64,000 nt of DNA. Origin: Fibrobacteria bacterium (lineage in GTDB: Bacteria; Fibrobacterota; Fibrobacteria; UBA11236). The translations under genes were made by a program, and so were the position numbers. The notes below the pieces were generated by a model. That model was not told where the DNA came from. It saw only the letters and a list, made by a program, of their open reading frames with translations, and did no database searches. Every line of letters begins with the position of its first letter. Within the stretch, counting starts at the first letter, position 1. This document shows positions 16,235 to 50,251 of the stretch, piece after piece. The stretch spans positions 2,548 to 66,547 of the forward strand of contig JBJHDK010000004.1 of NCBI GenBank assembly GCA_050486505.1, given 5' to 3'.

Positions 16235-16237
16235 GGA

Positions 16238-17178: not shown

Positions 17179-17532
17179 CGAAAACGTCCTTTTTTTAGCG
17201 CTTTGGCAGGTTTCGGACTGTCTCCGAACCCCCTGCAGGCGCCCTTCCGGTCTCGAAAATCCGGCGGGCCGCCGGGTTTTAAAAGTGCCGAAATCGCGCG
17301 CGCGGCGCGAAATTTAGGAAACCCCGCGTCGAATCGGAACCGTGAAAATCGATTCCTGCGGCGAATCCCCTGATTTTCCTGCTTCCCCGCCACCCGCGAT
17401 TTCCGCTCTTGCGGACCTGTAACTCACTGTTTGCCGCTCACCGTGCACTGTCCGCCATTCGCTCTTCGTTGCCTGTTCTTTGTTAAATATCGTCGTCCCC
17501 CCCAACAGGGCCAAACGCGAAAGGACTCCGCC

Positions 17533-18348: not shown

Positions 18349-18372
18349 GCCGGACAGTGGGGGCTCCCCCCG

Positions 18373-19236
18373 ATGCCCCTTCCGAAGCCCCGCATTCGCG
18401 GGGCTTCTTGTTTTGGGGTTTCTTCGCCACCGCCGGGCAAAATACCCCTGACGGCAGGGTCTGCCGGGAAGATTCCCCCAATCTCGGCTGGCGCAAGCCG
18501 CCACCGCGCTGTACTTTGGGAGCTGGAGGTGCCCTTGAGCCCGGACATATTAAGACAGGAAGTGCGCGCCCTGCGCGAAAAATGGCGTGACCAACCGCCC
18601 GCTCCGCTCTACGACGAGCTCTCGGACCTGTTGTTCAAGGCGGGCAAGATCACTGCGGCCATGAACCTGATGGAATCATCGCTTCGGGCGGCCCCCTCCC
18701 CCGATGACGTGGCGACCGATTTGAGCGATGATGGTGCTTGGTGGTTCCGGCGCGGGATGGAATATGCCGATGCCTGCCTTTACGAAGAGGCCTGCGCCTG
18801 CCTGAACCGGGCCCTTGCGGCGGGCGGAGAAAACTTCGAGACGCATTATTGCCTGGCCGGCCTCTACAAGAGCCTGGAGCGGCCCGACAAGGCCGAACAC
18901 CACTGTCGCGTTTCACTGCGCCACAATCCGGGATTCGCGCCGTCTTTCATCCTTCTCGCGTCGATCACGCGCATGACCGGTCGCGTGGAAGAAAGCGCCG
19001 ATGCGGCGCGCATGGCCGTATTGCTTGATCCCGACTGCGCGCCCGCGCACTATGATCTCGCCTGCTATTACGCCCTTTCAGGTGAATGCGACAAGGCCCT
19101 CAAGGCCTTGCGCAGCGCCATGGACAAGGGGTTCTGCGATTTCGAATGGGCCGATCGCGATCCCGATCTCGCCCCGTTGCGCGAGCATGCGGAGTTCCGC
19201 AGGCTGCTCGAAACGTTCGGCGCCGGGGACCGGTAA
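18373..19236 (+). CDS. TPR repeat-containing protein (start uncertain, possibly TTG near 18529)
   Basis: The C-terminal 200 aa carry TPR-like repeats (…ACLNRALAAGGENFETHYCLAGLYKSLERPDKAEHHCRVSLRHNPGFAP…AHYDLACYYALSGECDKALKAL…). The N-terminal part of the ORF is low-complexity. Confidence 0.55.
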   Translation: MPLPKPRIRGASCFGVSSPPPGKIPLTAGSAGKIPPISAGASRHRAVLWELEVPLSPDILRQEVRALREKWRDQPPAPLYDELSDLLFKAGKITAAMNLMESSLRAAPSPDDVATDLSDDGAWWFRRGMEYADACLYEEACACLNRALAAGGENFETHYCLAGLYKSLERPDKAEHHCRVSLRHNPGFAPSFILLASITRMTGRVEESADAARMAVLLDPDCAPAHYDLACYYALSGECDKALKALRSAMDKGFCDFEWADRDPDLAPLREHAEFRRLLETFGAGDR

Positions 19237-22128: not shown

Positions 22129-22947
22129 CTACTCGTCGTCGAAAACCGCCGGATCGTAGTGCCCGAGCGAAAAGAATTTTTTCTGGTCGGGCATCTCGCG
22201 AAAGCTGGCGCGGAACTCCTTCGGGGTCATCTTCTTGTACTTCGCGAACTGCTTGGTAAAGAAGCTGTGATCATAGAAGCCGGCCTCCACGGCAATATCC
22301 GCAATGGGCTTGCTCGTGCCAACCAACAGGCGACACGCCACATTCAACCGAACCATGGCCAGGTAGCGCCCGGGCGTCACCTGGAACTCGCGCTTGAAAC
22401 GTCGTGTGAAACGTGAAAGGCTGAGCCCCGCCAACTCCGCGAGTTCTTCGGTGCGCAGCGGTTTGGCATAATGCGCCATGATATGCCTGACAACGGGCTC
22501 CAAGGTGCGGTAGGGGTGCAAGTCCGAATCCGCTGAACGCAAATCCTGCGTGATTCCGATCAGGCCGGCGGCATTGCCGTGCCTCCCCCTGAGGGGGATT
22601 TTTGTGGTCTGATACCAGTCCACCATGCCGTCCGCGGTGGGAATGATCTCGGGTTTGTTGATTTGCGGCACACCCGTGCGCATGACCTCGGCATCATCGT
22701 GACGGTATGCCTCCGCCTGCAACTTCCAGAAGAAATCGTAATCCGTCTTGCCGACGATTTCTTCCGGGCCGTTGAGCCCCATTTTTTCCCAATGGTTGCG
22801 GTTCGACATGATGAACCGGCTCTGCGAGTCCTTGATGAAGATGTGGATGTTGCTGGGGAAATAGTTGAGCAACTTTTCGATCAACTCATCCTCGGGGAGT
22901 TCCCCCAGAAATGCGCGACGGAACTCCTGATGGTCTGCACGTGTCAT
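22129..22947 (-). CDS. PAS domain-containing AraC-family transcriptional regulator (paralog 1)
   Basis: N-terminal PAS-like region (…FIKDSQSRFIMSNRNHWEKMGLNGPEEIVGKTDYDFFW…) and C-terminal AraC helix-turn-helix (…AGFYDHSFFTKQFAKYKKMTPKEFR…). 272 aa. Confidence 0.8.
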   Translation of the reverse strand: MTRADHQEFRRAFLGELPEDELIEKLLNYFPSNIHIFIKDSQSRFIMSNRNHWEKMGLNGPEEIVGKTDYDFFWKLQAEAYRHDDAEVMRTGVPQINKPEIIPTADGMVDWYQTTKIPLRGRHGNAAGLIGITQDLRSADSDLHPYRTLEPVVRHIMAHYAKPLRTEELAELAGLSLSRFTRRFKREFQVTPGRYLAMVRLNVACRLLVGTSKPIADIAVEAGFYDHSFFTKQFAKYKKMTPKEFRASFREMPDQKKFFSLGHYDPAVFDDE

Positions 22948-23819
22948 GGGGTTGCCTTTCTCCGCGACGGAGTCCCGCGGACACCGGCCGATAGTTCGGC
23001 GCTTTCCCTGGCCGAACTCCGCGGCGTCAGATCTCCGAGCGGGAAAAATTTCTTGCGGTCGGGAAGGTCGCGAAACCGGATGCGAAACTCCTTGGGCGTG
23101 AGGCCCTTGTACTTCAGGAACTGTTTGGTGAAAAAACTGTGGTCGTAAAAGCCCGCCTTCAGTGCGACTTCAGAAATCGGCGAAGTGGTGTCAAGCAGCA
23201 GCCTGCATGCTGCATTCAGTCTGACCATGGAAAGGTAGCGGCCCGGTGTCACCCCGAACTCCTGCTTGAAGCGACGGATCAGGTAGCCAGGGCTCAACCC
23301 GGCAACATCGGCCATTTCTTCGAGCCGGAGCGGCTTCGCGTAGTTCGTCATGATGTGGCGAACCACGGGTTCAAGGGTGCGGTAGGCCGACAACGCCGAA
23401 TCCGCGGAGCGCAGGTCGCGGATGATGCCCACAAGACCCTCGATCCCTCCATCCTTGCCGCGCAGGGGGATTTTGGTCGTCTGGTACCAATCCACCATGC
23501 CGTCCGCGGTGGGAATGATCTCGGGCTTGTTGATTTGCGGAGTCCCGGTCCGAAGAACCTCGCCATCGTCATGGCGGTAGGCTTCTGCCTGCAATGACCA
23601 AAAAAAATCATAGTCGGTCTTGCCGATAATCTGCTCCCCGCCCTCCAGGCCCATCTTTGTCCAGAAGCTGCGATTCGCCATCATGAAGCGGCCTTGCGCA
23701 TCCTTGACGAATACATCGACATTATCAGGAAAATGCTCCATGATTCTCTCGGTGATCTCGTTCTCGCGAAGCCTGTCGAGAAACGCGTGCCGAAGATCCT
23801 CCTCGCGACCAAGCGCCAT
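22944..23819 (-). CDS. PAS domain-containing AraC-family transcriptional regulator (paralog 2)
   Basis: Start at ATG 23819 (MALGREEDLRHAF…). It shows high identity to paralog 1 across the PAS and helix-turn-helix regions and carries an extra C-terminal tail. Its stop overlaps the paralog-1 start as ATGA. Confidence 0.8.
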   Translation of the reverse strand: MALGREEDLRHAFLDRLRENEITERIMEHFPDNVDVFVKDAQGRFMMANRSFWTKMGLEGGEQIIGKTDYDFFWSLQAEAYRHDDGEVLRTGTPQINKPEIIPTADGMVDWYQTTKIPLRGKDGGIEGLVGIIRDLRSADSALSAYRTLEPVVRHIMTNYAKPLRLEEMADVAGLSPGYLIRRFKQEFGVTPGRYLSMVRLNAACRLLLDTTSPISEVALKAGFYDHSFFTKQFLKYKGLTPKEFRIRFRDLPDRKKFFPLGDLTPRSSARESAELSAGVRGTPSRRKATP

Positions 23820-23821
23820 GC

Positions 23822-23950
23822 ATCCCCTCCGAAGTACGACTGTCGAAATGATACCAATGTTATGGCGAGCGAGACCCGTAAGTGAGCGAGAATTTCCACG
23901 TGGGCGGCGCGACACCGGTTAAATTCCCTCGTCCCGCAACCGGACGCGAC
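23822..23950 (+). promoter_or_regulatory. Possible degenerate FMN riboswitch (RFN element) in the ribD leader (needs a covariance-model check)
   Basis: The leader contains GCGAGCG, CCGGTTAAATTCC and AACCGGACG, which resemble the conserved RFN blocks (AGCCCGCGAGCG; CCGGUGNAAUUCCGG; AGUCCGGAUG), and its position in front of ribD is the classic one. Overall the match is partial. Confidence 0.25.
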
Positions 23951-23952
23951 TC

Positions 23953-25065
23953 ATGGATACTCGAACACACCACTCGCGACAGGCACTACGCCACATGGAT
24001 GCGGCCTTCGCCGAAGCGTTGGCCGCCAAGGGGCGGACCCTGCCCAACCCGGCGGTGGGCGCAGTGCTGGTCAGGAACGGCCGCGTCGTGGGGCGCGGCG
24101 GGACGCGGCCGGCAGGACAGGCGCACGCCGAAATCGTCGCGTTGGAGCAGGCTCGCGGCGAAGCGCGAGGAGCCACCCTGTACGTGACGCTCGAGCCCTG
24201 CCGGCACTTCGGCAGAACACCGCCCTGCACCCGCGCCATCATCGACGCCGGTGTGACGAGGGTCGTGGCCGCCTGCACCGACCCCAACCCCAAGGTCGCC
24301 GGAAATGGGCTTGCGGATTTGCGGCGCGCCGGCATCGAGGTCGAATGCGGACTGATGCGCGAGCGCGCCGAAACCTTCTACGCGGGCTTCTTCTTCTGGA
24401 TCCGGAACGGGCGCCCACGCATCGTCGTCAAGGTCGCGCAAAGCCTCGACGGGCGCATCAATGCGCGACCGGGCACGGAAACCCCGCTCACCGGCCTTGA
24501 GGCGCACCACTTCGCACATGCCCTCCGCGCGAGCGCCGATGCGATCCTCATCGGGGGTACAACCCTGCGCAGCGACAACCCGGACCTGACCCCGCGGCTT
24601 GTTCCCGGTGCGCCGGCGCCGGATGTGTTGGTCCTCACGCGCGACCGGATCCCAAGTCCCCGTCACAAGGTCTTCGCCCGCAACCGTCCGTCCCGAACCG
24701 TCGTGATTTCACCGGATCCCCCCCTTAACCTGCCTGCCCACGTGGATCTGGTCCGCATCCCCGGCAAAAGACCGCTTGTGCGGGAACTCCTGAACGTCTT
24801 CGCCGATCGCGGGTACCACGAGATTCTTGTGGAGGGGGGGCGTGCGGTGTGGTCTCCTTTCCTGAACGGGGGACTCTGCGACGCGCTGCATCTCGTCACG
24901 GCGCCGGCGCTCCATCCGGGAGGGGAACGCTGGGATGAAGGTCTTCGGGCAGGATGGGTGAAACCCCTTGAATTTCATAGATTTACGCCGCTTGGCCCTG
25001 ATGTTTGGGCCGAATTTCGACGGCGACCGGCCACCGCAACCGCGCGGAGGAGAACCGCGCCTTGA
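23953..25065 (+). CDS. ribD: Bifunctional riboflavin biosynthesis protein RibD (deaminase/reductase)
   Basis: CMP/dCMP deaminase zinc motif (HAEIVAL…TLEPCRHFGRTPPC) followed by a RibD_C reductase domain. The start is possibly the ATG at 23995. Confidence 0.9.
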   Translation: MDTRTHHSRQALRHMDAAFAEALAAKGRTLPNPAVGAVLVRNGRVVGRGGTRPAGQAHAEIVALEQARGEARGATLYVTLEPCRHFGRTPPCTRAIIDAGVTRVVAACTDPNPKVAGNGLADLRRAGIEVECGLMRERAETFYAGFFFWIRNGRPRIVVKVAQSLDGRINARPGTETPLTGLEAHHFAHALRASADAILIGGTTLRSDNPDLTPRLVPGAPAPDVLVLTRDRIPSPRHKVFARNRPSRTVVISPDPPLNLPAHVDLVRIPGKRPLVRELLNVFADRGYHEILVEGGRAVWSPFLNGGLCDALHLVTAPALHPGGERWDEGLRAGWVKPLEFHRFTPLGPDVWAEFRRRPATATARRRTAP

Positions 25066-25095
25066 CGCATTGAGTGAAAGGGCCCGGTACACATC

Positions 25096-25755
25096 ATGTT
25101 TACAGGGATCGTGCAGGAAACCGGTCGTGTCCGCGGGCTCTCTCCCCTTGGCGGAGCCGTGCGCTTTACGATTTCCGCTCCCGGGCTTTCCTCGCGGCTT
25201 GCCGTCGGTGACAGCGTTGCCTGCGACGGTGTCTGCCTGACGGTGGAGCGACTGGAGCGCGACGGATTCACCGTCTGCGCCGTGCCGGAAACGCTCGCGC
25301 GAACGACGTTGGGCCACCTGGCCATGGGCTCGGCGTTGAACCTGGAGTCCGCGTTGACTCCCACGACGCCGATGGGCGGGCATTTCGTCCATGGTCACGT
25401 CGACGGCACATGCGAAGTGATCGAAATCCGCCCCTTGGGCGACGGGGAGGGGCGTGAAGTCACCGTGCGCCTGCCCGGGCCGTTCGCGCGTTACTGCGTG
25501 TACAAAGGCTCGATCTGTTTATCGGGCGTAAGCCTCACGATCGCCGCCGTGGAGGGGAGCTCCGTGCGAGTGGCCCTGATCCCGCACACGCTCTCCGCCA
25601 CCACCTTGGGCAATGCAACGGTGGGGGACCTCCTGAACTTCGAAGTCGACATCCTGGCGAAATACGTGGAGCGTCTCGCGGGACGGGGCACGGGCTCGCA
25701 GCAGGCGTCGCTTGATGAGGCGGCGCTCAGGAAGTGGGGTTATGAAGTTTCATAG
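25096..25755 (+). CDS. ribE: Riboflavin synthase (alpha subunit)
   Basis: MFTGIVQETGRV… with duplicated lumazine-binding halves (…DGVCLTV…, …SICLSGVSLT…). 219 aa. Confidence 0.9.
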   Translation: MFTGIVQETGRVRGLSPLGGAVRFTISAPGLSSRLAVGDSVACDGVCLTVERLERDGFTVCAVPETLARTTLGHLAMGSALNLESALTPTTPMGGHFVHGHVDGTCEVIEIRPLGDGEGREVTVRLPGPFARYCVYKGSICLSGVSLTIAAVEGSSVRVALIPHTLSATTLGNATVGDLLNFEVDILAKYVERLAGRGTGSQQASLDEAALRKWGYEVS

Positions 25756-26920
25756 CATCGCCGAGGCGATTTCGGACCTGAGGCGCGGACGATCCATCGT
25801 GGTGGTGGACGACAAAAACCGCGAGAACGAAGGCGACGTCGTCTTCGCTGCGTCCAAATCGACGCCCGCAAAAATCAATTTTCTCGCGAAGCACGCGCGC
25901 GGCCTGGTGTGCGTGGCGCTTTCGGCGGATCGCGTCGAGGCCCTCGGCCTGCCTCCGATGACCGACCAGAACCGGTCTCGCTACGACACGGCATTTACCG
26001 TGTCCGTCGAAGCGCGCGAGGGCACGACCACGGGAATTTCGGCTTCCGATCGCAGCCTCACCGCACGCTTGCTGGCCGACGAGTCCTCGGGTCCGCGCGA
26101 CTTCATCAGCCCCGGCCATGTGTTTCCAATCAAGGCGCGGCGCGGTGGCGTGCTCGTGCGTGCGGGCCATACCGAGGCCGCCGTGGATCTGGTGCAAATG
26201 GCCGGGCTCGGAAACGCCGGGGTGATCTGCGAGATCATGAAAGAGGACGGGTCCATGGCCCGGCTTCCGGATTGCGCCCGATTTGCGCGCAAGCACGGAC
26301 TGAAAATCATTTCAGTGGAAGACTTGATCCACTACCGCCACATGCGCGAAAAACAGGTGCGCGCCGCCGGTTCCTTCCGTTTGCCCACTCCGCATGGGGA
26401 GTTCGAGGCGCACGCCTTCGAAGATCTTGTTCACGGTCGCATGCATTTGGCCCTCGTGCGCGGAGAGTTGTCCCAGACGCGCGCCGTCCCCGTGCGCGTG
26501 CATTCGGAATGCGCGCTCGGCGACGTGTTCGGGTCCCGGCGGTGCGACTGCGCCGACCTGCTGCAGCAGGGGCTCCGTGCCATTGCCCGGGAAGGCGGCG
26601 TCTTCCTATATATGCGCCAAACCCATTCCGAGGAGGCCTTCGGCCGCACCCTGCAAAAGTACGCCGCCGAGGACGCCCAACCGCGCTCCCGGGAAGCGAA
26701 GGGACGTTCCCAACACGGGGCCCCCATGGACGCCAGAACCTACGGCATCGGCGCGCAAATCCTCTTCGAGTTGGGGATCCGCCGCCTCAGCCTGCTGACC
26801 AACCATCCCAAGCGCATCCAGGGTCTTGAGGGTTACGGCCTCACCATCGTGAGGCAGGCGCCCCTGAGGGACGTAAAACCGGTCCGAACCCCGCGAGTCC
26901 GAAGCAAGGAGACAACATGA
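25742..26920 (+). CDS. ribBA: Bifunctional 3,4-dihydroxy-2-butanone-4-phosphate synthase / GTP cyclohydrolase II
   Basis: Start at ATG 25742 ([10 protein letters not shown]…). DHBP synthase motif ([12 protein letters not shown]) is followed by GTP cyclohydrolase II (…[20 protein letters not shown]…). Confidence 0.9.
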
Positions 26921-27378
26921 ACATCCTCGAAGGCAATCTCAACGCGAACGGAAAATCCTTCGGGATCGTCGTGTCCCGATTCAACACCCTTGTCACGCAA
27001 GAACTGCTCAAGGGTGCGGTCGACTGCCTCGTCCGCCACGGGGCCCGGGAGAAGGATATCACGGTGGCCTGGGTTCCCGGAGCCGGCGAGATCCCGCAAG
27101 TGCTCAGGCGTTTCGCCGCATCGGGCAAGTTCGACGCGGTCATCGCGTTGGGTTGTGTGATTCGCGGCGCCACGCCTCACTTCGACCAGGTCGTGCAGAC
27201 CGCCGTGAAGGGGTTCGGTGGCGTCGCGGACGTCGGCGTCCCCGCCACCTTCGGGGTTCTCACCACCGAGAACCTGGAACAGGCGCTGGAACGGGCAGGC
27301 TCCAAGGCCGGGAACAAGGGCTGGGATGCCGCACTGGCGGCCATCGAACTGACCTCGCTTTGGAGCAAGCTGCCGTGA
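26917..27378 (+). CDS. ribH: 6,7-dimethyl-8-ribityllumazine synthase
   Basis: [23 protein letters not shown]…, the canonical lumazine synthase start. It overlaps ribBA by 4 nt. Confidence 0.9.
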
Positions 27379-27809
27379 TCTCGCGCCGCAAGGGCAGAGA
27401 ATTCGCCATGCAGGCGCTGTATGCGTCCGAAGTCGGGGCAGAGACCCTCGACAAGGCTGCGGAAACCCTCATGCAGGACGATCCCGTTTCTCCCGACATG
27501 CGCGACTACGGCATGCGATTGTGCCGCGTCGTGCGCACCCGCGCCGACGAGATCGACGCTCTCATCGCAGCCTGCGCCGAACGTTGGGATGTCGCGCGCA
27601 TCGCCGTGGTGGACCGCATCATTCTACGCATCTCCGTGGCAGAACTCATGACCGAGCCCGATGTTCCCGCGAAGGTCTGCATCAACGAGGCGGTGGAAAT
27701 CGCCAGAAAGTTCTCAACCGAAAACAGCAGCCGCTTCGTGAACGGCGTCCTTGACGCCGTTTCCCGCAAGCTGGCTGATCTTCACAACGAACCCGCTCCG
27801 AAAAAGTAA
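27375..27809 (+). CDS. nusB: Transcription antitermination factor NusB
   Basis: GTG start at 27375, overlapping the ribH stop (GTGA). The N-terminus [19 protein letters not shown] is the conserved NusB start. The conserved ribH-nusB linkage is preserved. Confidence 0.83.
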
Positions 27810-27818
27810 GGAAGACGC

Positions 27819-30623
27819 ATGCTCAACGAAAAAAAGTTGGACGTCATTCTGGCGCTGACTGTATTCTTCGCCGCATTCTTCGTGTACCTGTCCACGATGG
27901 CACCCACAGTCTCCTGGTGGGACACCGGGGAATGGATCGCCTCGTCGTATGTCCTGGGAAACCCCCACCCCCCGGGGAATCCCCTTTTCACCTTGTTGGG
28001 ACGCGCCTTCGTCGTCGCCATGCCCATCTGGGAGAAAGCGGCGCGGATCAACTTCATCTCCGTGCTTACGATGGCCTTGAGCGCGATGGTCGCCTTCCTG
28101 TTCATCCTGAAGGCGATGCGCCTCATTTTCAACAAGGGAGGACTCAACCGCTTCGCCCTGTATTCGGGCGCCGTCATCGGTGGTTTCCTGGTCGCATTCT
28201 CCGACACGGTCTGGTTCAGCGCGGTGGAAACCGCCGCGTACAGCCCGGCGATGCTGATCGTGATGCTCACTGGCCTCCTGAGCCTGCATTGGTACGCGCG
28301 GCGCGGCACCCCGGCCGCTGACCGGCTTCTCCTTCTCATCGCCTATATCGGCTTTCTGGGCGTCGGCGTGCACATCTTCGCGTTCATCACCATCCCCGTG
28401 ATCGCGCTGTTCGTGCTCCTCGACAAGGAGTCCCGGTCCAACATCCCGCTCATCCTTGCGGGCGTGCTGCTGCTGTCCGTCATTTACGACATCGGCAACT
28501 TCGTCTTCTACGCCGCCGCCTCCCTCGCATTCTGCGTCACGGGGTATCTGGTTGCCCGTGCTCCCGAATGGCGTCGGCGCTGGTCGCTCGCGGGCTGGCT
28601 GAGCCTTGCCGCCATTCTCGGGTTCTCCACCTACATCTATGCCCCGGTCCGTTCCCACACCAATGTGTTGATCGACGAGGGCGCCCCCCGCACATGGCCC
28701 CTGCTGAAGGAGTACCTGGAACGCAAGCAGTACGGTTCCGAATCGATGCTGCGGCGAGCCTTCCATCGCCGCGCCCAGATCGGCCACCAGATCCTGATCC
28801 ACCCCCACATGGGCTACGGGGGCTATATGCTCTCGCAATACTTCCCCTGGAAGGTTGGCGATCGCAGCGAGGAAACCGTGGTCACCACCCGGAACCTCCT
28901 CGGCAAGGAGCTTGTCTTCCCGGAGCTGTACCGCTCGCTGCAGGGGCGAACCGGAACCCAAATCGGGCTTTTCCTGCTTCTGCAGATCCCCTTCATCTGG
29001 GGAGTCCTGCTCGCTTACCGCCGCAACCGAAAAATCGGCGCGTTCATCGGCGCGCTGTACGTCGCGACCAGTTACGGCCTCATCTTCTACCTCAACTTCG
29101 CGGATGGCACGCGCATGGAACTGCGCGACTACCAGTGGTGGAAGAGCACGGGATTCGACCCGAACCAGCAACCTCCCCCGGTTCACATGGAGGTGCGCGA
29201 ACGCGATTACTTCTTCACGCCCGGGTTCATGTACATGGGCATCCTGTTCGGCGTTTCGGCTGTCTTCCTGCTGAACTGGATCGCCTCCCGGCGCAGGTTG
29301 CTGCTGCGCCCGGCCGGCTTTGCCCTGATCGGCCTGGCCTTCGCTCTTCCCGTGTGGTCGAACTACCGTGAGCACGACCGCTCCCGCGACTTCGTGCCTT
29401 ACGACTACGCCTACAACCTGCTGAACTCCTGCCGTCCGAACTCGATCCTGTTCACCAACGGAGACAACGACACGTTCCCGCTCTGGTTCATGCAGCAGGT
29501 CGAGGGGATCCGTACCGACGTGCGCGTCGTGAACCTCTCGCTGGTGAACACCACCTGGTACATGCACCAGCTTTACGAGCACGAGCCGAAACTGAAAATC
29601 GGATTCACGCCCGAGGAGATCGAGAACCTCCGTCCGCAGCCGTGGCGCTTCCGCGGTCCGGTCGAGATCACGATTCCCGGAACGCAGATCCGCTACCAAC
29701 TGGACCCCCTCCCTTACCTTCGCGTTCAGGACATCATGGTGCTGCACATCGTGCAAAACAACTTCCCCGAGCGCCCTGTTCACTTCGCCGTCACCATCGG
29801 CGGCAACAACGCGATGGGCCTTGAGAGATTCACGGTCATGGAAGGCATGGTGTATACCCTCGTCGAAGAGCCGCGCGATCGAGAAATCGACGTCGTCGCC
29901 ACCGCCCGCCTCGTGGACTCTGTCTACCAGTTCCGCGGTCTCGGCGATCCCCGCGTGCACATCGACAAGACCACCGAGGGCTTGCTGACCAACTACTCCG
30001 CGACCAACTTCAGGCTGGCGGGGTGGGCACAGGACAGCCTCGAGAAAGTGATGCGGGAGCTGGAGCGCCTGCGCGGCCGCGATGGTCTGGGACGTGCCGA
30101 AACGGAGCGTCTTGCCGTCCTCGAAGAATCCCGCGAAGAAATGCTGGCCTTCGCCGAGCGCTACCTCGGGCTGAATGCGCGCATCCTCCCGGGTGAATGG
30201 CGCGTCCACTACTACCTGGGCCAGCTTTACCATCTCGCGGGCGAGCCCGGGAAGGCGGAATCGGCCTTCCGCGACGGCATGCGGACCCGCGGACCCGCGG
30301 CGAAGATTTTCGCCCTCAACCTGATGCAGCTCTTCATGGATGCCGGGCGAAGCGACGAGGCCAAGGCCGTGCTTTCCGAAATGACGGTGCGTTTTCCCGA
30401 GGATCTTGAAGTCGCATACCGTCTCGCGGAGATGTACCAGCAGGAAGGCGACTTCACCCGCGCGCGCGACATTCTTTCGAGATGGCTGCGGGCGAATCCC
30501 AATCACGAGTACGCGCGGCCCATCGAACAGCAGCTCCGCCAGCTGGAGTCGATGCCGCAGCGGGAGCTCCCGCCTCCGTCGCACGAGATCGAGGCTGAGA
30601 TTCCCGGCCTCCTTCCGGAGTAA
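27819..30623 (+). CDS. DUF2723 (TMEM260/TMTC-like, GT-C fold) polytopic membrane protein with C-terminal TPR repeats; putative lipid-linked-sugar-dependent (protein) glycosyltransferase
   Basis: 934-aa protein. The N-terminal 500-550 aa carry at least 10 TM helices and the DUF2723 hallmark VSWWDTGEW near the first loop. The C-terminal 300 aa form a TPR array (…YYLGQLYHLAGEPGKAESAFRDGM…AYRLAEMYQQEGDFTRARDIL…). It starts 9 nt after nusB. Confidence 0.75.
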   Translation: MLNEKKLDVILALTVFFAAFFVYLSTMAPTVSWWDTGEWIASSYVLGNPHPPGNPLFTLLGRAFVVAMPIWEKAARINFISVLTMALSAMVAFLFILKAMRLIFNKGGLNRFALYSGAVIGGFLVAFSDTVWFSAVETAAYSPAMLIVMLTGLLSLHWYARRGTPAADRLLLLIAYIGFLGVGVHIFAFITIPVIALFVLLDKESRSNIPLILAGVLLLSVIYDIGNFVFYAAASLAFCVTGYLVARAPEWRRRWSLAGWLSLAAILGFSTYIYAPVRSHTNVLIDEGAPRTWPLLKEYLERKQYGSESMLRRAFHRRAQIGHQILIHPHMGYGGYMLSQYFPWKVGDRSEETVVTTRNLLGKELVFPELYRSLQGRTGTQIGLFLLLQIPFIWGVLLAYRRNRKIGAFIGALYVATSYGLIFYLNFADGTRMELRDYQWWKSTGFDPNQQPPPVHMEVRERDYFFTPGFMYMGILFGVSAVFLLNWIASRRRLLLRPAGFALIGLAFALPVWSNYREHDRSRDFVPYDYAYNLLNSCRPNSILFTNGDNDTFPLWFMQQVEGIRTDVRVVNLSLVNTTWYMHQLYEHEPKLKIGFTPEEIENLRPQPWRFRGPVEITIPGTQIRYQLDPLPYLRVQDIMVLHIVQNNFPERPVHFAVTIGGNNAMGLERFTVMEGMVYTLVEEPRDREIDVVATARLVDSVYQFRGLGDPRVHIDKTTEGLLTNYSATNFRLAGWAQDSLEKVMRELERLRGRDGLGRAETERLAVLEESREEMLAFAERYLGLNARILPGEWRVHYYLGQLYHLAGEPGKAESAFRDGMRTRGPAAKIFALNLMQLFMDAGRSDEAKAVLSEMTVRFPEDLEVAYRLAEMYQQEGDFTRARDILSRWLRANPNHEYARPIEQQLRQLESMPQRELPPPSHEIEAEIPGLLPE

Positions 30624-31762
30624 TGCCCGTGCCGGAGGGGGCAACGCGTCCGCGCGTGCTGATCGTCAACTGGAGGGATATCCGCAACCCCGCGGCGGGC
30701 GGGGCGGAGGTTCACCTCCACGAGACGGCGCGCAGGCTCGTGCACAACGGCTTTGACGTCGTGCAATATGCGCACGCCTTCCCCGGCGGATCCGCCGAAG
30801 ACAATGTCGACGGCGTGGAAATCCACCGGAAGGGGAACGCGTTCCTCTTCAATTACACCGCCCTGCTCAATCTGCGCCGATGGGTGCGCCGCCACCGCAT
30901 CGATGTCGTGATCGACGACTCGAACAAGGTTTGTTTCCTGCTCCCGTTGGTTTCGCCGGTTCCGGTCGTGGCGCGCTTCCATCATCTTTTCGGACGTTCC
31001 ATTTTCCGGGAAGCCGGGTTTTTCCCCGCCCTGTACGTCTATCTCTTCGAGTGCATGATCGGCCCCGTGTATCGACGCACCCGCATCCTGACGGTATCGC
31101 CCAGTACACGCGCCGAATTGGAAGCCAAGGGCCTGCGGCGCATCACGATCGCGCTCAACGGCGTCGACCGCTCCGTGTACCGCGTGATTCCCGGAGCGGA
31201 GAAGATCCCTTTTCGCATCGTCCACATTGGGCGCATCAAGCGCTACAAGAAGCTCGACACCCTTCTTCACGCGCTGGTGCATGTGCGGCACGAGTTCCCG
31301 CAGGCGCATCTGGTGGTCGGAGGCGGGGGGAACGACCTCCCCGCGCTGCGCAGGCTTGCGCTCTCGCTCGGAATCGGGGATGCGGTCGATTTCCGGGGGT
31401 TCGTTTCCGAGGAAGAAAAGGTGCGGCTTTACAACGAGGCCCAGGTGTTCGTGAACGCCTCCCTGAAGGAGGGCTGGGGCCTGACGTCCGTCGAAGCCAA
31501 CGCCTGCGGGACACCCGTGGTCGCCACCGACGCGCCCGGTTTGCGCGACAGCGTGCGCCACGACGTGACCGGCCTGCTCGTGCCTCCCGATTCCCCGGAC
31601 AAGTTCGCTGCCGCAATCGTCAGCCTCCTCCGCGACCCGGAGCGGCTCTCGCGCATGCGGGAAGCGGCCATGGAGTGGGCTGCCGCGCACGATTGGGACC
31701 GCGCCGCCGGGGTTACGCGCGACGTCCTGCTTGAGGCGGTTTCCGGGAGATCCGCGCCATGA
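30623..31762 (+). CDS. Glycosyltransferase family 4 (GT-B, retaining)
   Basis: 379-aa protein with the GT4/EX7E-type C-terminal motif (…KEGWGLTSVEANACGTPVVATD…). Its start codon overlaps the upstream stop. Confidence 0.83.
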   Translation: MPVPEGATRPRVLIVNWRDIRNPAAGGAEVHLHETARRLVHNGFDVVQYAHAFPGGSAEDNVDGVEIHRKGNAFLFNYTALLNLRRWVRRHRIDVVIDDSNKVCFLLPLVSPVPVVARFHHLFGRSIFREAGFFPALYVYLFECMIGPVYRRTRILTVSPSTRAELEAKGLRRITIALNGVDRSVYRVIPGAEKIPFRIVHIGRIKRYKKLDTLLHALVHVRHEFPQAHLVVGGGGNDLPALRRLALSLGIGDAVDFRGFVSEEEKVRLYNEAQVFVNASLKEGWGLTSVEANACGTPVVATDAPGLRDSVRHDVTGLLVPPDSPDKFAAAIVSLLRDPERLSRMREAAMEWAAAHDWDRAAGVTRDVLLEAVSGRSAP

Positions 31763-34591: not shown

Positions 34592-34690
34592 TCCCGTCGC
34601 CCCCAGTGCCCCCTGGCCGTCGCGGAATCGCGGACGATCCCCATCTTTCGCCTGCTATATTAGGCCCTCACGTCATCAGACCGGACTTCC

Positions 34691-35398
34691 ATGCCCAGAA
34701 CCCTCATCATCATCCCGACCTACAACGAGATCGAGAATCTCCCGCTGATGATTCCCGCTCTGGAGGCGCTTGACCTCGGACTCGAGGTTCTCGTCGTCGA
34801 CGATGGTTCGCCCGACGGCACCGGGGCCTGGGTCAGGGAGCAACAGGCCTCGAAGCCGCACCTGCACCTGATCGAGCGCTCCGGCAAACAGGGGCTCGGA
34901 TCCGCGTACGTCGCGGGGTTCAAATATGCGCTGGAGCGCGATTATGAACTCATCTTTGAAATGGACGCGGATTTCTCGCACGACCCGGCCTACATCAAGG
35001 ATTTTCTCGCTGCGATCCACGACGCGGACCTCGTCATCGGCAGCCGCTACATCAACGGCGTCAATGTCGTGAACTGGCCCATGAGCCGCCTGCTTCTGAG
35101 CTACTTCGCCAACATGTACGCACGGCTGGTGACCGGGCTTCCGGTCCGCGACGCCACGGGCGGATTCAAGTGCTTCCGCGCCGACGCCCTGCGCAAGCTC
35201 GACCTCGACCGCATCAGCTCGGGCGGCTACTCTTTCCAGATCGAAGTGAACTACAAGCTGTGGAAGAAGGGTTGCCGCATCCGCGAAATCCCCATCATCT
35301 TCAAGGACCGCACGTTGGGTGCCTCCAAAATGTCGGGGAAAATCATCAAGGAAGCCCTGTTCCTGCTGGTGAAGCTGCGCCTTGGCGGAGGAAAGTGA
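34691..35398 (+). CDS. Polyprenol monophospho-sugar synthase (dolichol-phosphate mannosyltransferase Dpm1-like, GT2), soluble form
   Basis: MPRTLIIIPTYNEIENL…VVDDGSPDGT…EMDADFSHDP…GGFKCFR. It aligns closely with Dpm1/Ppm1 catalytic domains. 235 aa with no TM segment. Confidence 0.85.
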   Translation: MPRTLIIIPTYNEIENLPLMIPALEALDLGLEVLVVDDGSPDGTGAWVREQQASKPHLHLIERSGKQGLGSAYVAGFKYALERDYELIFEMDADFSHDPAYIKDFLAAIHDADLVIGSRYINGVNVVNWPMSRLLLSYFANMYARLVTGLPVRDATGGFKCFRADALRKLDLDRISSGGYSFQIEVNYKLWKKGCRIREIPIIFKDRTLGASKMSGKIIKEALFLLVKLRLGGGK

Positions 35399-37137
35399 GG
35401 ACGGGGGACCAACCCTTCGACTCCACTTCGGTAAACTCAGTGCGATACCCCCAGGACAAGAGCCAGGATGCGGGAGACGAGGAGGGACAAGGAGCACCCC
35501 CAACCTCTTCCCCCCTGCCTACTGCCTACCCAAGGGGCGTCTCTGTCATCATCGTCTCCTACAACGTCCGCGAATTTCTTGATGCCTGCCTGCAGAGCAT
35601 CCGCCACGCTGCGGCGGGTTTCGACGGAAAAATCGAGGTCATCGTGTTCGACAACGACTCGCACGATGGCACTGTATCGCTGCTGCGGCCACGTTGGCCC
35701 GATGTCACCTGGATCGCTTCGGATCGCAACCTCGGCTTCGGATCAGGGTGCAACCGCGGTGCCGCAGTGGCCACGCAAGACCTGCTGCTGTTTCTCAACC
35801 CCGACACCTTGGTTCGCGAAGACACCTTCCGGGTCATGCGCGACTTTTTCTCGGGACGCGGCGACGTGGGGGCGGCCGGCTGCAAGATCGTGAACCGCGA
35901 CGGCAGCCTGCAGGCCGCAGCGAAGCGCAGTTTCCCCTCCCCGCGCGTAGCGGCCTACAAATTCATGGGCCTCGGCAGTCTTTTCCCGAAAAGCCGTGTT
36001 TTCGGCCGCTACAACCTGACCTATCTCGACGAGAACGAGACTCATGAGGTCGACGCGATCTCGGGTTCCTTCATGTGCATGCGCGCCGAAGTGTTCCGCA
36101 AGGCGGGAGGCTTTGACGAGGACTTTTTCATGTACGGGGAAGATCTGGACCTCTGCTTCCGGATCAAATTGTTGGGGCTGCGCAACTACTACCACCCGGC
36201 CACTCAGGTGGTCCACTTCAAGGGCGAGAGCGCGAAAAGCCGTCCCTTCCGGTCCTTCCTGTATTTCCACGAGGCCATGATCCTCTTCGCCCGCAAGCAT
36301 CTTGAACTGCACGCGCTGCCGGGATTCCTGCTGAATGCCGGCATCATCGTCCTGGCCGCGGCCAATTTCATCTCTTCGCGCTTCCGCAAGTGGAGCCGCT
36401 GGCTCGCCGATCTCGTCGTGGTCAACGGAGTGCTCGCTGCGACAGCCTACGCCTACCACAACATCCTCGACATCCGCCACGTCGCGACAGAGTACCCCGG
36501 CATGTATCTGCTGTCGCATTTACTCGTTTCCCTCGCGGTATTGCTTCCCTTCGCCTACATCGGCGAGTACGGCCGTCGCGTCGCACCTCCGCGCGCGGTT
36601 CTGTTCGCAGCCGCAGGCGGATTTCTTGCCTTCTTTTCCTTGAGCTACTTCCTCCACGAGCACGCCTATTCAAGGGTCGTCTTCGGAGTCACGGGTCTCC
36701 TGAGCGTCGCCCTGCTTTCGGGATGGCGCTGGGTTCGGTCGCACGGAGGCAAGCTTTTCCGAAAGCTCATGGACGGTTCCCGGCGCGTCGCCATTCTCGG
36801 AACCGGGGCGCGGGCCCTCGCGCTCGCGGAACTCATCCACTCGGATCGCGTGGAGGGTTATGAATGCGTCGGCTTCATCCATTTTCCAAAGGGCCCGGCG
36901 CCTCCCGAGGTGCGGGCAAGCGTGATCGGCGAAGTCGATTCCCTGCCGGGGTTGTCGAGAAAACTCGACCTCGCCGGAGTCATTGTTGCATTGGAGGGCG
37001 ACGCATACCCCGCGGCACTCGAAATCCTCGCGCAACAGGGCGCGCGAGCACTTGAGGTCAAGGTGCTGCTGGGGCCTCCGGAACCGGGGAAATTCAGCCT
37101 GATCGACCTTAATTTCGCGGATTCCCCGAAACAGTGA
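35395..37137 (+). CDS. Multidomain protein: N-terminal GT2 glycosyltransferase, central polytopic membrane domain, C-terminal CoA-binding-like domain
   Basis: Probable GTG start at 35395 with a GGAGG site 7 nt upstream, overlapping the Dpm1-like stop. GT2 core (VSVIIVSYNV…FDNDSHDGT…GFGSGCNRG…MYGEDLDLCFR) is followed by 5-6 TM helices, then a VAILGTGARALALAELI…ECVGFI…GV domain resembling the N-terminal CoA-binding/Rossmann domain of polysaccharide-biosynthesis sugar transferases. Confidence 0.65.
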   Translation: MRTGDQPFDSTSVNSVRYPQDKSQDAGDEEGQGAPPTSSPLPTAYPRGVSVIIVSYNVREFLDACLQSIRHAAAGFDGKIEVIVFDNDSHDGTVSLLRPRWPDVTWIASDRNLGFGSGCNRGAAVATQDLLLFLNPDTLVREDTFRVMRDFFSGRGDVGAAGCKIVNRDGSLQAAAKRSFPSPRVAAYKFMGLGSLFPKSRVFGRYNLTYLDENETHEVDAISGSFMCMRAEVFRKAGGFDEDFFMYGEDLDLCFRIKLLGLRNYYHPATQVVHFKGESAKSRPFRSFLYFHEAMILFARKHLELHALPGFLLNAGIIVLAAANFISSRFRKWSRWLADLVVVNGVLAATAYAYHNILDIRHVATEYPGMYLLSHLLVSLAVLLPFAYIGEYGRRVAPPRAVLFAAAGGFLAFFSLSYFLHEHAYSRVVFGVTGLLSVALLSGWRWVRSHGGKLFRKLMDGSRRVAILGTGARALALAELIHSDRVEGYECVGFIHFPKGPAPPEVRASVIGEVDSLPGLSRKLDLAGVIVALEGDAYPAALEILAQQGARALEVKVLLGPPEPGKFSLIDLNFADSPKQ

Positions 37138-37231: not shown

Positions 37232-38188
37232 ATGCCCGTACCCAAGGGGCCCCATCTCGAGTTCGAACAGCCGGTGGTCGAGCTGGCGATGAAAATCGAG
37301 GATCTCCTCAAGTCAGGTGAAGTGACAGGGTCCGATGTCAAGGCTCTCCAGGTCAAAAAGGAAGCCCTCCAGAAGAAAATCGCGGCGAAACTCTCGCCCT
37401 GGAACCGGATCGAACTGGCCCGGAGAGCGGGCCGCCCATTCACCCTGGATTACGTTCACAGCATCTTCGCCGACTTCGTCGAACTGCATGGCGATCGCCG
37501 CTTCGGGGATGACCCGGCCATGGTTTGCGGTCTCGCGCGCCTCGGTGAGCAAAGTGTCATGATCATCGGCCAGCAAAAGGGCCGCGACACCAAGGAAAGC
37601 ATCCGTCGCAACTTCGGCATGGCTCACCCCGAGGGATATCGCAAGGCCCTGCGCTGCATGAAGCTCGCGGAGAAATTCCGCATCCCGGTGATATCATTCA
37701 TCGACACTCCCGGGGCCTATCCCGGCCTCGGGGCGGAAGAACGAGGGCAGGGTGAGGCCATCGCCCTCAATCTCATGGAAATGGCCGTGCTTCGCGTCCC
37801 CATCATCGCCGTGGTCATCGGGGAAGGAGCCAGCGGGGGTGCACTCGGGATCGGCGTCGGTGACCGCCTGCTCATGCTTGAGAACGCATGGTACGGCGTC
37901 ATCTCTCCGGAATCGTGCAGCGCCATCCTTTGGGGCGACAGCAGCAAGAAACAGGAACTGAGCGGCACCATGAAAATCACTGCTGGGGACCTCAAGAACC
38001 TCAACGTGATCGATCGCATCATCCCCGAGCCCTTGGGCGGAGCCCACTGGGATCCCGATGCGATGTGCGGCACCTTGAAGCAAGTGCTCACGGAAGAGCT
38101 CTCTCTCCTGCGTGATGCCGACATCGAAGCTCTTGTTGAAAAGCGCGGAGCGAAATATGCCGCCATCGCCCAGTTCGCGGAGAAATAG
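37232..38188 (+). CDS. accA: Acetyl-CoA carboxylase carboxyltransferase subunit alpha
   Basis: Canonical AccA sequence (…LDFEQPVVELAMKIEDL…, …FIDTPGAYPGLGAEERGQGEAIA…). Confidence 0.93.
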   Translation: MPVPKGPHLEFEQPVVELAMKIEDLLKSGEVTGSDVKALQVKKEALQKKIAAKLSPWNRIELARRAGRPFTLDYVHSIFADFVELHGDRRFGDDPAMVCGLARLGEQSVMIIGQQKGRDTKESIRRNFGMAHPEGYRKALRCMKLAEKFRIPVISFIDTPGAYPGLGAEERGQGEAIALNLMEMAVLRVPIIAVVIGEGASGGALGIGVGDRLLMLENAWYGVISPESCSAILWGDSSKKQELSGTMKITAGDLKNLNVIDRIIPEPLGGAHWDPDAMCGTLKQVLTEELSLLRDADIEALVEKRGAKYAAIAQFAEK

Positions 38189-38196
38189 GAGGCGTC

Positions 38197-38445
38197 ATGC
38201 TCGACGGGAAACTTCTTGAAATCCTGTGTTGCCCCGAAACACGGCAAGACCTTGCGGTCGCCGGCGACGAGGTCATTTCAGCGCTCAACGCTCGCGTGGA
38301 CGCCGGAACGCTGACAAACCGCGTGGGCGAGCCTGTCCGCGAAAAACTCGATGGCGGCTTGGTACGCGCCGACGGCAAATTTCTCTACCCCGTCCGCGAA
38401 GACATTCCCGTGATGCTCATCGACGAAGCCATCCCGCTCTCCTGA
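38197..38445 (+). CDS. Trm112 family protein (UPF0434)
   Basis: 82-aa protein with LLEILCCPETRQDL…YPVREDIPVMLIDEA, the Trm112/YcaR zinc-finger-like signature. Confidence 0.72.
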   Translation: MLDGKLLEILCCPETRQDLAVAGDEVISALNARVDAGTLTNRVGEPVREKLDGGLVRADGKFLYPVREDIPVMLIDEAIPLS

Positions 38446-38473
38446 AGCCGGCCACGGCAACGCATCCACAGGC

Positions 38474-39148
38474 ATGACACGTCCAGCATCGACTCCGGAT
38501 CAGCACGAGCCTCCAGGAATGGTGGCAGGGTTCGCCCGCACCGCGGAAGCCCTGCACCTGGACGGCGATACCGATGCCGCGCTGCAGTTGCTTGCGGAGG
38601 GAATCCGCCTGCGGCCCCGCGATGTGACGGGGCGTCTCGTGCTCGCGCGCGTCTGCCTCGACAGCGGACGGCGGGGCGAAGCCGTCGAGTGGCTTGAGAG
38701 TGTGTTGCGTGCTGATCCGGACTGCCCGGCGGCTCTCGTACAATTGGCCGAATTGCGCGCCGATGCGGAAACTGCGAGGTACAGAAAACGGGCCCTTGCG
38801 CGCGAGCCTTGGGACGAATCCGAAAGTCTTTCCACGAACACGCCGAATGTCGACCAGACACCCGCGAGCCCCGAACTCGAGTCGGCTCCCGCACCGATAC
38901 CCCATGTTCTACCCGTGCAAGAGGACGAGGAGCTTCCCGAAGACGAAGATCCCGCAAATCTTCCGCACATTGCCACGGCCACTCTGGCCGAGATATATTT
39001 CCAGCAGGGCCTGAAAGAGCAGGCAGCGCAAATTTACCGCCTGATTTTGGAGCGGCATCCAGGGGACGCTTCCGCGAGGGAACGCCTTGAGGTGATTGAA
39101 ACTTCCATTGAGGGGCCCGCTCCGCGGGCAACGGACGAAAACGGTTAG
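38474..39148 (+). CDS. TPR repeat-containing protein
   Basis: 224-aa protein with TPR-like N-terminal helices and an acidic middle section. It sits between the Trm112-like gene and accB. Confidence 0.55.
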   Translation: MTRPASTPDQHEPPGMVAGFARTAEALHLDGDTDAALQLLAEGIRLRPRDVTGRLVLARVCLDSGRRGEAVEWLESVLRADPDCPAALVQLAELRADAETARYRKRALAREPWDESESLSTNTPNVDQTPASPELESAPAPIPHVLPVQEDEELPEDEDPANLPHIATATLAEIYFQQGLKEQAAQIYRLILERHPGDASARERLEVIETSIEGPAPRATDENG

Positions 39149-39174
39149 CTCCGGTTTCTGAAGGGGATTCCAGC

Positions 39175-39654
39175 ATGCAACTTTCCGATGTATCGAACCT
39201 GGTCAAATTGCTCGACAAGAGCGGACTCGCCGAGCTGAGGTTCAGCGACGGAACGTTCAACCTGGTCCTCAAGAAAGAATCCCGCCACGCCCCCGTTGCC
39301 CAGATCGTTCACGCAGCCGCCCCGGCGGCACCTGCGGCCGCACCGGCCGCCCCCACTGCGACTCCCGTGTCTTCGGCTCCGCCCCCCGCGCCCGAAAAAG
39401 CCTCCGGGCCCGCACTCAAGGAAATCACTTCACCGATGGTCGGCACCTTTTATGCCAGCTCGTCTCCGGGAAGCCCCGCCTTCGCGCAGGTCGGCACGGT
39501 GGTGAAGCCAGGCCAGGTGCTCTGCATCATCGAAGCCATGAAGATCATGAACGAAATCGAATCCGACATCTCGGGCGAAATCGTCGAGGTCTGCGTTTCG
39601 AACGAGACCCCGGTCGAGTACGGCACCGTGCTCTACCGCGTCCGCCCCGCGTAG
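39175..39654 (+). CDS. accB: Acetyl-CoA carboxylase biotin carboxyl carrier protein
   Basis: Ala/Pro-rich linker followed by a biotinyl domain carrying the EAMKIMNEIE motif. Confidence 0.9.
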   Translation: MQLSDVSNLVKLLDKSGLAELRFSDGTFNLVLKKESRHAPVAQIVHAAAPAAPAAAPAAPTATPVSSAPPPAPEKASGPALKEITSPMVGTFYASSSPGSPAFAQVGTVVKPGQVLCIIEAMKIMNEIESDISGEIVEVCVSNETPVEYGTVLYRVRPA

Positions 39655-39666
39655 GGCGATTCATTT

Positions 39667-45848: not shown

Positions 45849-45939
45849 TCCCTTACAGGGACCCACCACCACCCCGCCGTCCCGCGCCCCATCCACCGGA
45901 TCGCCCGCGCAGCGTACCCCCCAACTACCTTTCACCTCC

Positions 45940-47037: not shown

Positions 47038-47038
47038 C

Positions 47039-50251
<3,213 letters not shown>

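Follow-up and report, generated by a model that had tools for sequence, protein, structure and literature searches.

We describe here a gene and its neighborhood in a 64,000-nucleotide (nt) stretch of a Fibrobacteria bacterium genome (GenBank assembly GCA_050486505.1, contig JBJHDK010000004.1, positions 2,548 to 66,547), referred to below as the window and numbered from its first letter. The gene encodes a 934-amino-acid (aa) protein that belongs, at the sequence level, to the TMEM260 family of glycosyltransferases (GTs), classified as GT117 and formerly known as DUF2723. It lies between a riboflavin-nusB gene array and accA, in the company of genes for further GTs, a flippase-like membrane protein and a reductase (Table 1). 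The ATG start codon is preceded by AAGGA 7 nt upstream and by the nusB stop codon 9 nt upstream. An earlier model-made annotation that saw the letters and open reading frames (ORFs) only, hereafter the sequence-only reading, had singled out this ORF and its DUF2723 domain, and both are confirmed.

The plus strand is the coding strand of the locus: its product retrieves 1629 homologues at E≤1e-10 in a word-indexed search (best, 79% identity) and, in an exhaustive search with a threshold of E≤1e-30, 956 representative clusters, the closest homologues being annotated as uncultured Fibrobacteria or Fibrobacterota. An antisense ORF of 976 aa (27714..30644, minus strand) spans the whole gene, and we reject it as a gene as it has no Pfam or family match. 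It resembles the shadow ORFs that GC-rich DNA tends to produce, long spurious ORFs being expected because the window has a G+C content of 63%. We find no second GT-C enzyme or paralogue of the target in the 64-kb window.

Table 1. Positions in the window of the target gene, its domains and motifs, and the neighboring genes.
Feature	Position	Strand	Basis and remarks
nusB, last gene of the ribD-E-BA-H-nusB array	27375..27809 (GTG 27375 or ATG 27408)	+	PF01029, E=7.7e-34
Target gene: by sequence a TMEM260-family (GT117, ex-DUF2723) GT-C glycosyltransferase, 934 aa	27819..30623	+	ATG start
Membrane core, aa 1-519: 13 predicted transmembrane (TM) helices, N-in/C-out	27819..29375	+	Hydropathy, AlphaFold2 (AF2) helices, K/R-rich cytoplasmic loops
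First periplasmic loop motif VSWWDTGEW, aa 31-39, right after TM1	27909..27935	+	D35 aligned with TMEM260 D52
H50	27966-27968	+	Aligned with TMEM260 H67
Loading loop R302-K-Q-Y305-G306	28722..28736	+	hhalign: R302/R264, Y305/Y267, G306/G268
E458-V-R-E-R462-D-Y-F, periplasmic end of TM12	29190..29213	+	R462 aligned with TMEM260 R355; hmmsearch, hhalign
Predicted periplasmic alpha/beta palm domain, aa ~520-716	29376..29966	+	PF28495 (TMEM260_2) in newer Pfam
Palm motif T-N-G-D549-N-D-T-F-P-L-W	29454..29486	+	N547-G548-D549 aligned with R439-G440-D441
Helical hairpin, aa 717-789, then ~3 tetratricopeptide repeat (TPR) pairs and capping helix, aa ~795-911	29967..30551	+	Pfam, AF2 helices
GT4 (GT-B), cytoplasmic, 379 aa	30623..31762	+	PF00534, E=1.5e-41; PF13439; 1-nt overlap with target stop (TAATG)
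LPG_synthase_TM "flippase-like" polytopic protein, 347 aa	31759..32802	+	PF03706, E=2.5e-37; ATGA overlap with GT4
ArnC/GtrB-type polyprenol-phosphate glycosyltransferase (GT2), 317 aa	32799..33752	+	GTG start; GTGA overlap with flippase-like gene
RmlD-like short-chain dehydrogenase/reductase (SDR), 280 aa	33749..34591	+	PF04321, E=2.3e-55; ATGA overlap with ArnC-like gene
Dolichol-phosphate-mannose synthase (DPMS)-like GT2, 235 aa, no TM helices ("Dpm1-like" in the sequence-only reading)	34691..35398	+	99-nt gap (34592-34690) upstream
Large GT2, 580 aa, with C-terminal membrane/CoA_binding_3-like region	35395..37137	+	GTG start; PF00535, PF13641, PF13727; GTGA overlap with DPMS-like gene
accA	37232-38188	+	94-nt gap after large GT2

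Family, fold and active site

PF11028, now named "Protein O-mannosyl-transferase TMEM260-like", matches aa 35-205 of the target over profile positions 1-176 of 179 (E=4.4e-37; 128 bits, cutoff 24.2). Homologues of the target carry this domain (TMEM260_N) together with a second one, PF28495 (TMEM260_2), and the target likewise contains this second domain as its palm. Searched as a single sequence against the PDB, the target finds human TMEM260 (9RQL, 9RQM, and 9RQN), a protein O-mannosyltransferase of the endoplasmic reticulum for IPT domains, as its best match (E=4e-17, in two stretches), all other matches being weak and confined to the TPRs. A full-length family profile was swamped by designed TPR proteins; we therefore built a TPR-less profile from 34 homologues spanning the Fibrobacteres-Chlorobi-Bacteroidetes (FCB) superphylum, and its sole PDB match is human TMEM260 (E=1.1e-41), again in two stretches, which cover the TM core and the palm.

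Other families of GT-C enzymes leave no comparable trace. Among the 19 Pfam families listed for the target at E≤1 there is no match to TMTC (PF08409/DUF1736), to PMT or PMT_2 (PF02366, PF13231), to MIR, or to the STT3, oligosaccharyltransferase (OST) and PglL families, and we reject membership in the TMTC or PMT families. In CAZy, TMEM260 forms GT117 and the TMTCs form GT105 (PMC11292533). Of the "TMTC/TMEM260-type" assignment made in the sequence-only reading, the TMEM260 and GT-C parts thus stand, whereas the resemblance to TMTCs is architectural only, because no TMTC signal appears even at E≤1. The TMEM260-type assignment as such will not surprise a specialist, since Pfam already labels the family TMEM260-like. 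What is new here is the residue-by-residue match to a mechanism described in 2026, a bacterial variant that has 13 TM helices and larger loops on the periplasmic side, a translationally chained operon of donor-pathway genes that recurs in other genomes, and a core-genome distribution across the FCB superphylum.

Hydropathy and an AF2 model built on 71 sequences (mean pLDDT, 91.3; pTM, 0.88) agree on 13 TM helices between aa 2 and 519, consistent with the earlier count of at least 10. Short cytoplasmic loops rich in K/R (RRGT, RAPEWRRRW, YRRNRK, and SRRR) and acidic short periplasmic loops indicate an N-in, C-out topology. This places the first loop, the loop of 98 aa that follows TM9, the one ahead of TM12 and the entire C-terminal region on the predicted periplasmic side. 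The modeled membrane domain has the GT-C fold that the sequence-only reading had anticipated: PglB, ArnT, Pmt4, AglB, and ALG12 are the top Foldseek matches, and approximately 360 to 416 residues of the core superpose on STT3B, ALG12, ArnT, and Pmt4. The soluble C-terminal region, approximately 415 aa long, had been described as a TPR array of about 300 aa. This proves incorrect because Pfam TPR matches are confined to aa ~791-900; most of the region is palm and hairpin, and the TPR part amounts to only ~115 aa.

Compared with human TMEM260, the target shows sequence homology throughout the GT-C core and palm and the same order of domains (GT-C core, alpha/beta palm, and TPR), but it is longer (934 against 707 aa), has 13 instead of 11 TM helices, and carries enlarged periplasmic loops of ~100 aa (280-377, with a beta-hairpin) and ~40 aa (424-462), as well as a long helical hairpin ahead of the TPRs. 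In addition, a bacterial polyprenol must take the place of dolichol as the lipid carrier, and the target is encoded in an operon with donor-pathway genes. TMTC1-4, which are cadherin O-mannosyltransferases with a dolichyl phosphate mannose (Dol-P-Man)-type donor, resemble the target in placing extracytoplasmic TPRs after a GT-C core. However, their arrays are long, while the short TPR part of the target is set off from the core by the 200-aa palm and the hairpin; TMTCs are not known to have a TMEM260-type palm. The PMT enzymes of Actinobacteria and fungi (GT39), which use polyprenol-phosphate mannose, share an Asp in the first extracytoplasmic loop but differ by their PMT and MIR domains, and the base proposed for the target lies in a separate soluble palm. 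Pmt acts on Sec-exported proteins.

TMEM260 was recognized as a protein O-mannosyltransferase in 2023, and its structure and mechanism followed in 2026 (bioRxiv 10.64898/2026.03.17.711096). That study divides the human protein into a GT-C "wrist", a Rossmann-like "palm" (416-564), and TPR "fingers" (565-706). Mannose is contacted by D52 and H67 of the first luminal loop, by Y267 of the loading loop and by R355 of TM helix 10, the phosphate is contacted by R264, and D441 in the palm serves as the general base beside the acceptor Thr. D52 is assigned to donor positioning. Activity is abolished in the D52A, H67A, R264A, Y267A, and D441A variants, while R355A retains about 20% (bioRxiv 10.64898/2026.03.17.711096).

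Using phmmer, hmmsearch, and hhalign (hhalign probability, 97.5%), we aligned these six residues with D35 (D52), H50 (H67), R302 (R264), Y305 (Y267), R462 (R355), and D549 (D441) of the target, where HMMER places the loading loop differently and the R302/Y305 assignment rests on hhalign. All six lie on the predicted periplasmic side, and all six are strictly invariant (34/34) in an alignment of the FCB-superphylum homologues, which share 31 to 58% identity and come from ~12 phyla or candidate phyla. Invariance in this alignment extends to E38, the counterpart of TMEM260 E55, to Q304 in the loading loop, to R460 and Y464 around R462, and to the palm residues G548, N550, D551, T552, and F553. 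The motifs D-[ST]-G-E, H-P-P-G, R-x-x-Y-G, and G-D are common to the target and TMEM260. Taken with the predicted topology, these sequence and profile alignments suggest an active site equivalent to that of TMEM260, such that the bacterial family appears to keep the complete catalytic apparatus, with D549 as the likely catalytic base. The VSWWDTGEW motif was correctly placed after the first TM helix in the sequence-only reading, which took D35 and E38 for the catalytic pair. D35 does align with D52; however, D52 positions the donor, and the residue that aligns with the base is D549.

The pattern of conservation also bears on whether the protein is an enzyme at all. It could in principle be a catalytically inactive scaffold or chaperone of GT-C shape whose TPRs organize envelope assembly, in keeping with the abundance of standalone TPR proteins nearby and with the annotation of homologues in some sources merely as TPR or TadD-like proteins. 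We hold this to be extremely improbable, given that the six functional residues stay invariant over deep divergence, that the best-conserved stretches of the family are the active-site motifs and not the TPRs, and that the target is translationally chained to donor-pathway genes.

The gene array and its recurrence

Stop and start codons that overlap by 1 to 4 nt chain the target to the GT4, flippase-like, ArnC-like, and RmlD-like genes in succession, and no convincing terminator was found between genes of the array. Of the two polyprenol-phosphate sugar synthases, the one translationally chained to the target is therefore the ArnC/GtrB-like GT2 and not the Dpm1-like gene to which the sequence-only reading had drawn attention, 4 kb downstream and in the same transcription unit. 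That gene does lie there, 4.07 kb from the target, and its label is justified because its best solved relative is the DPMS of Pyrococcus (5mlz, E=2.4e-31), matched over the catalytic domain (aa 5-229 against 26-246); NCBIfam matches to AglJ, PpgS, and Dol-P-hexose transferase are weak. The shared transcription unit is only partly supported for it, as a 99-nt gap sets the gene apart from the chain of overlapping genes upstream.

The ArnC-like GT2, which has TM helices at its C-terminal end, covers positions 4-296 of 316 in the NCBIfam ArnC profile (E=3.5e-60), and in the PDB it matches ArnC over its full length (9hwj, E=8.9e-55) as well as GtrB (5eke, E=2.3e-31). The flippase-like protein scores 72.5 bits against TIGR00374, "flippase-like domain" (cutoff, 43.2). 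The RmlD-like SDR reaches 193 bits against TIGR01214, below the equivalog cutoff of 224, and no rmlA, rmlB, or rmlC is found nearby; we speculate that it may act on a lipid-linked sugar, comparable to the DprE2-type steps in other three-component systems. The C-terminal region of the large GT2 resembles the N-terminal, noncatalytic part of polyprenyl glycosylphosphotransferases (TIGR03025, positions 2-221). In several phyla this gene is kept together with the DPMS-like gene and accA.

In three-component periplasmic glycosylation, as established for Gtr-type systems, a GT2 makes an undecaprenyl phosphate (Und-P)-linked sugar, a flippase exports it and a GT-C enzyme transfers it (PMC11127046). 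Like GtrA/GtrB/Gtr*, ArnC/ArnT, and CsbB/GtcA/YfhO (PMC11127046), the locus encodes a GT2 synthase, a putative flippase and a GT-C enzyme together. It departs from them in that the GT-C enzyme is of the GT117 family and not of the Gtr, ArnT, or YfhO families, and in that an LPG_synthase_TM (MprF-like) protein, and not one of the GtrA, SMR, or MATE type, would serve as the flippase. Moreover, a second, DPMS-like synthase and the RmlD-like SDR are added, and the whole stands among core genes (rib-nusB to accA) instead of in a glycan locus or prophage.

The composition of the array, together with the fold, allows a further alternative to be weighed, namely that the target is an OST which transfers a glycan en bloc from undecaprenyl diphosphate (Und-PP) to proteins, as PglB, PglL, and STT3 do, the GT4 and GT2 enzymes building the glycan. 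PglB, AglB, and STT3B are indeed among the best structural matches, and several cytoplasmic GTs are present in the cluster; yet the fold matches to ArnT, Pmt, and ALG12, which use monosaccharide phosphates, are equally strong. The likeness to the GT66 enzymes STT3, PglB, and AglB stays at the level of the fold, as the periplasmic domain of the target is a TMEM260-type palm, and neither the OST and PglL families named above nor a WWDxG-type OST motif is detected in the target. The donor residues are shared with TMEM260, where they bind Dol-P-Man by its single phosphate and its mannose. Furthermore, no catalytic domain of an initiating phosphoglycosyltransferase and no Wzx was found in the cluster, whereas two polyprenol-monophosphate sugar synthases are adjacent. 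We consider an OST very unlikely here, even though the O-oligosaccharyltransferase (O-OTase) of the general O-glycosylation system of Bacteroidota, along with its core GTs, was reported in 2022 as still unidentified (PMC8729774).

That report invites a broader proposal as well: the FCB-wide family might be the sought protein-glycosylating transferase of general O-glycosylation in Bacteroidota and their relatives, or else stand for an ancient pathway of O-mannosylation in Gram-negatives that gave rise to metazoan TMEM260. We regard this as a doubtful, rather long-odds proposition. Against the first version stands the expectation that an O-OTase uses a diphosphate-linked oligosaccharide, the donor residues holding a monophosphate-linked donor in TMEM260. 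In the literature searched we found no link between DUF2723/TMEM260-like proteins and general O-glycosylation in Bacteroidota.

A scan of GTDB species representatives gave at least 600 matched stretches, 597 of them confirmed by tblastn. The best 80 of these at least 600 loci, examined for phylum, include Fibrobacterota, Zixibacteria, Ignavibacteria, Gemmatimonadota, Latescibacterota, Marinimicrobia, KSB1, Eisenbacteria, Chlorobi (with the cultured Prosthecochloris ethylica), Bacteroidota, Cloacimonadota, and Calditrichota. Synteny spans the full array (rib-nusB-GT117-GT4-flippase-like-ArnC-like-RmlD-like-DPMS-like-GT2-accA) where the target homologue is 56% identical, and a reduced array (nusB-GT117-ArnC-like-[RmlD-like]-DPMS-like-GT2) is still found at 34 to 37% identity. 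nusB lies directly upstream of target homologues across the range of 34 to 56% identity. In Eisenbacteria the order is rearranged (GT4-flippase-like-GT117-ArnC-like) while the same genes remain together, and a grouping kept despite a new order points to functional coupling and not merely to inherited synteny. In addition, DPMS-like copies of 50 to 75% identity occur near GT117 family members in several phyla.

To express this linkage in numbers, we considered the 53 GTDB loci flanked on each side by 3 kb or more and counted a synthase of either type when it lay on the same strand within 7 kb. A synthase is linked in 17/53 loci, a GT4 stands beside the family member in 19/53, and one or the other is present in 26/53. 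Broken down by phylum, linkage to a synthase is seen in 3/3 Fibrobacterota, 4/5 Eisenbacteria, and 2/4 Latescibacterota loci. As a separate observation, the trio of GT4, flippase-like protein, and polyprenol-phosphate sugar synthase recurs in rearranged form in Eisenbacteria and Latescibacterota loci (e.g., L039, L054, L067, and L078).

Donor and acceptor

We propose that the target is an inverting GT-C enzyme of the inner membrane whose acceptor is most likely a Ser/Thr of an unfolded, Sec-exported envelope protein, a reading to which we assign a probability of roughly 0.6. In this scheme, a GT2 at the cytoplasmic face (ArnC/GtrB-like, DPMS-like or both) would charge Und-P with a single hexose, and the lipid-linked sugar would reach the periplasmic leaflet, plausibly by means of the flippase-like LPG_synthase_TM protein. 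The 13-helix core would then bind the donor by D35, H50, R302, Y305, and R462, the palm would present the acceptor hydroxyl, and D549 as general base would deprotonate it for inverting transfer, with the TPR cap aiding acceptor recruitment. Mannose is a reasonable guess for the transferred sugar, because all mannose-contacting residues are conserved and a DPMS-like gene is a neighbor, but the ArnC-like/RmlD-like pair could instead supply another or a modified sugar. We infer the label "protein O-glycosyltransferase" from homology, and the same applies to the donor, to the role of the flippase and, above all, to the acceptor.

Three observations together favor Ser/Thr of exported proteins as acceptor: the homology to TMEM260, the TPR cap, and the precedent of TfpW. 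TMEM260, the sole characterized member of the family, is a protein O-mannosyltransferase that acts on extended peptides. TfpW of Pseudomonas aeruginosa is an O-glycosyltransferase that attaches D-arabinofuranose to pilin, and it, too, is a GT-C enzyme with a periplasmic C-terminal TPR and a polyprenol-phosphate-linked sugar. By its description TfpW is Emb/ArnT-like, carries a DDX motif and is encoded beside pilA, whereas the target has TMEM260-family motifs and no pilin gene beside it.

Several results weigh against this proposal, and they concern first of all the acceptor side. The TMEM260 residues that contact the peptide, R439, P443, and E466, correspond in the alignments to N547, D551, and S574 in the target, and these replacements are conserved among the bacterial homologues. 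By our reading of the sequence, the TPR region contains a single Asn (N833) and thus essentially no Asn ladder, and many homologues have no Pfam TPR match at all. The differing contact residues and the single TPR Asn suggest that the acceptor is bound differently than in TMEM260. Across phyla the acceptor-side motif TNGDNDTFPLW hardly varies, which would equally fit a single conserved, nonprotein acceptor. On the donor side, two different lipid-sugar synthases stand beside one GT-C enzyme, leaving the cognate donor ambiguous, and the additional GTs (GT4 and large GT2) and the RmlD-like reductase are typical of glycan and glycolipid pathways. At the tblastn sensitivity used, Chlorobi, Zixibacteria, and Marinimicrobia showed no synthase linkage, and in the literature we found no earlier case of an MprF-like flippase domain that acts on polyprenol-phosphate sugars. 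The TMEM260 entries 9RQL to 9RQN are not among the matches from the PDB fold libraries. Finally, the literature we searched contains no characterized bacterial member of the DUF2723/TMEM260 family; where bacterial relatives come up at all, they are called no more than "distant homologs in bacteria" (PMC10214176).

Much of this evidence would suit a system of the Gtr/Arn type, in which the same chemistry, with a flipped Und-P-monosaccharide as donor, is directed to a nonprotein acceptor such as the lipopolysaccharide/lipid A core, a glycolipid made by the GT4, or a polymer linked to peptidoglycan or Und-PP. The gene set follows the three-component logic, and most bacterial systems of this kind act on glycans or lipids (PMC11127046). 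The chained synthase is closest to ArnC, which belongs to lipid A modification, and to GtrB, which belongs to O-antigen glucosylation, and the housekeeping context next to the acc genes points the same way. On the other hand, the only characterized family member modifies Ser/Thr of proteins, and the palm that holds the peptide and the base in that enzyme is conserved here. The GT-C enzymes known to modify glycans and lipids (ArnT, Gtr, and Emb/Aft) are similar to the target only at the level of the fold, and the TPR cap and the TfpW precedent again point to recognition of a protein. Overall, we consider a nonprotein acceptor possible but somewhat unlikely.

The search for a protein acceptor by motif was uninformative. 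A regular expression for the human TMEM260 IPT sequon finds no full match, either in the window or across the 1.29 Mb of related loci, a result that says little because the acceptor-contact residues differ from those of human TMEM260.

Under either choice of acceptor the locus is of interest, as the family is very large, spans the FCB superphylum, and is encoded in several phyla beside genes for lipid-linked monosaccharide synthesis and a candidate flippase. It yields a model, open to testing, of how periplasmic glycosylation may proceed in Gram-negative lineages that have been little studied, it provides a prokaryotic system for the GT117 mechanism, and it suggests a plausible evolutionary origin of the human disease gene TMEM260. 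A protein acceptor would mean that Pmt-like O-mannosylation reaches past Actinobacteria, and an envelope lipid or glycan in that role would mean that GT117 chemistry is not confined to proteins.

Genomic context

The remainder of the window belongs to the core chromosome, with genes for complex I, secDF, acc genes, argB/C, recF, gyrB, ATP synthase, parAB, and lepA, and we accordingly reject a mobile or defense island. ORFs of 290 to 436 aa that have no Pfam match at the thresholds applied lie at 7316-8212, 15870-16745, 17314-18504, 49385-51537, and 58343-59218, and some of these may be shadow ORFs read from the noncoding strand. Upstream of the target, the ribD-E-BA-H operon (22129-27378) has no flavin mononucleotide riboswitch match in Rfam at the gathering threshold, and Rfam gives no match in the whole window. 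Two tandem PAS-AraC regulator genes lie directly upstream of this operon on the opposite strand.

Downstream, the acc genes are interrupted (37232-41058), the order being accA, a TPR protein, accB, and accC. This TPR protein has 224 aa here and 700 to 1580 aa in relatives, and comparison of the acc order with loci L001, L003, and L004 shows an ATPase of the type II secretion system E type between accB and accC in some relatives. Genes of a set that is frequent near the chromosomal origin are present as well, namely recF and gyrB (45829-49388) and parB/parA (59749-61724). The cumulative GC skew reverses direction near 18 kb of the window.

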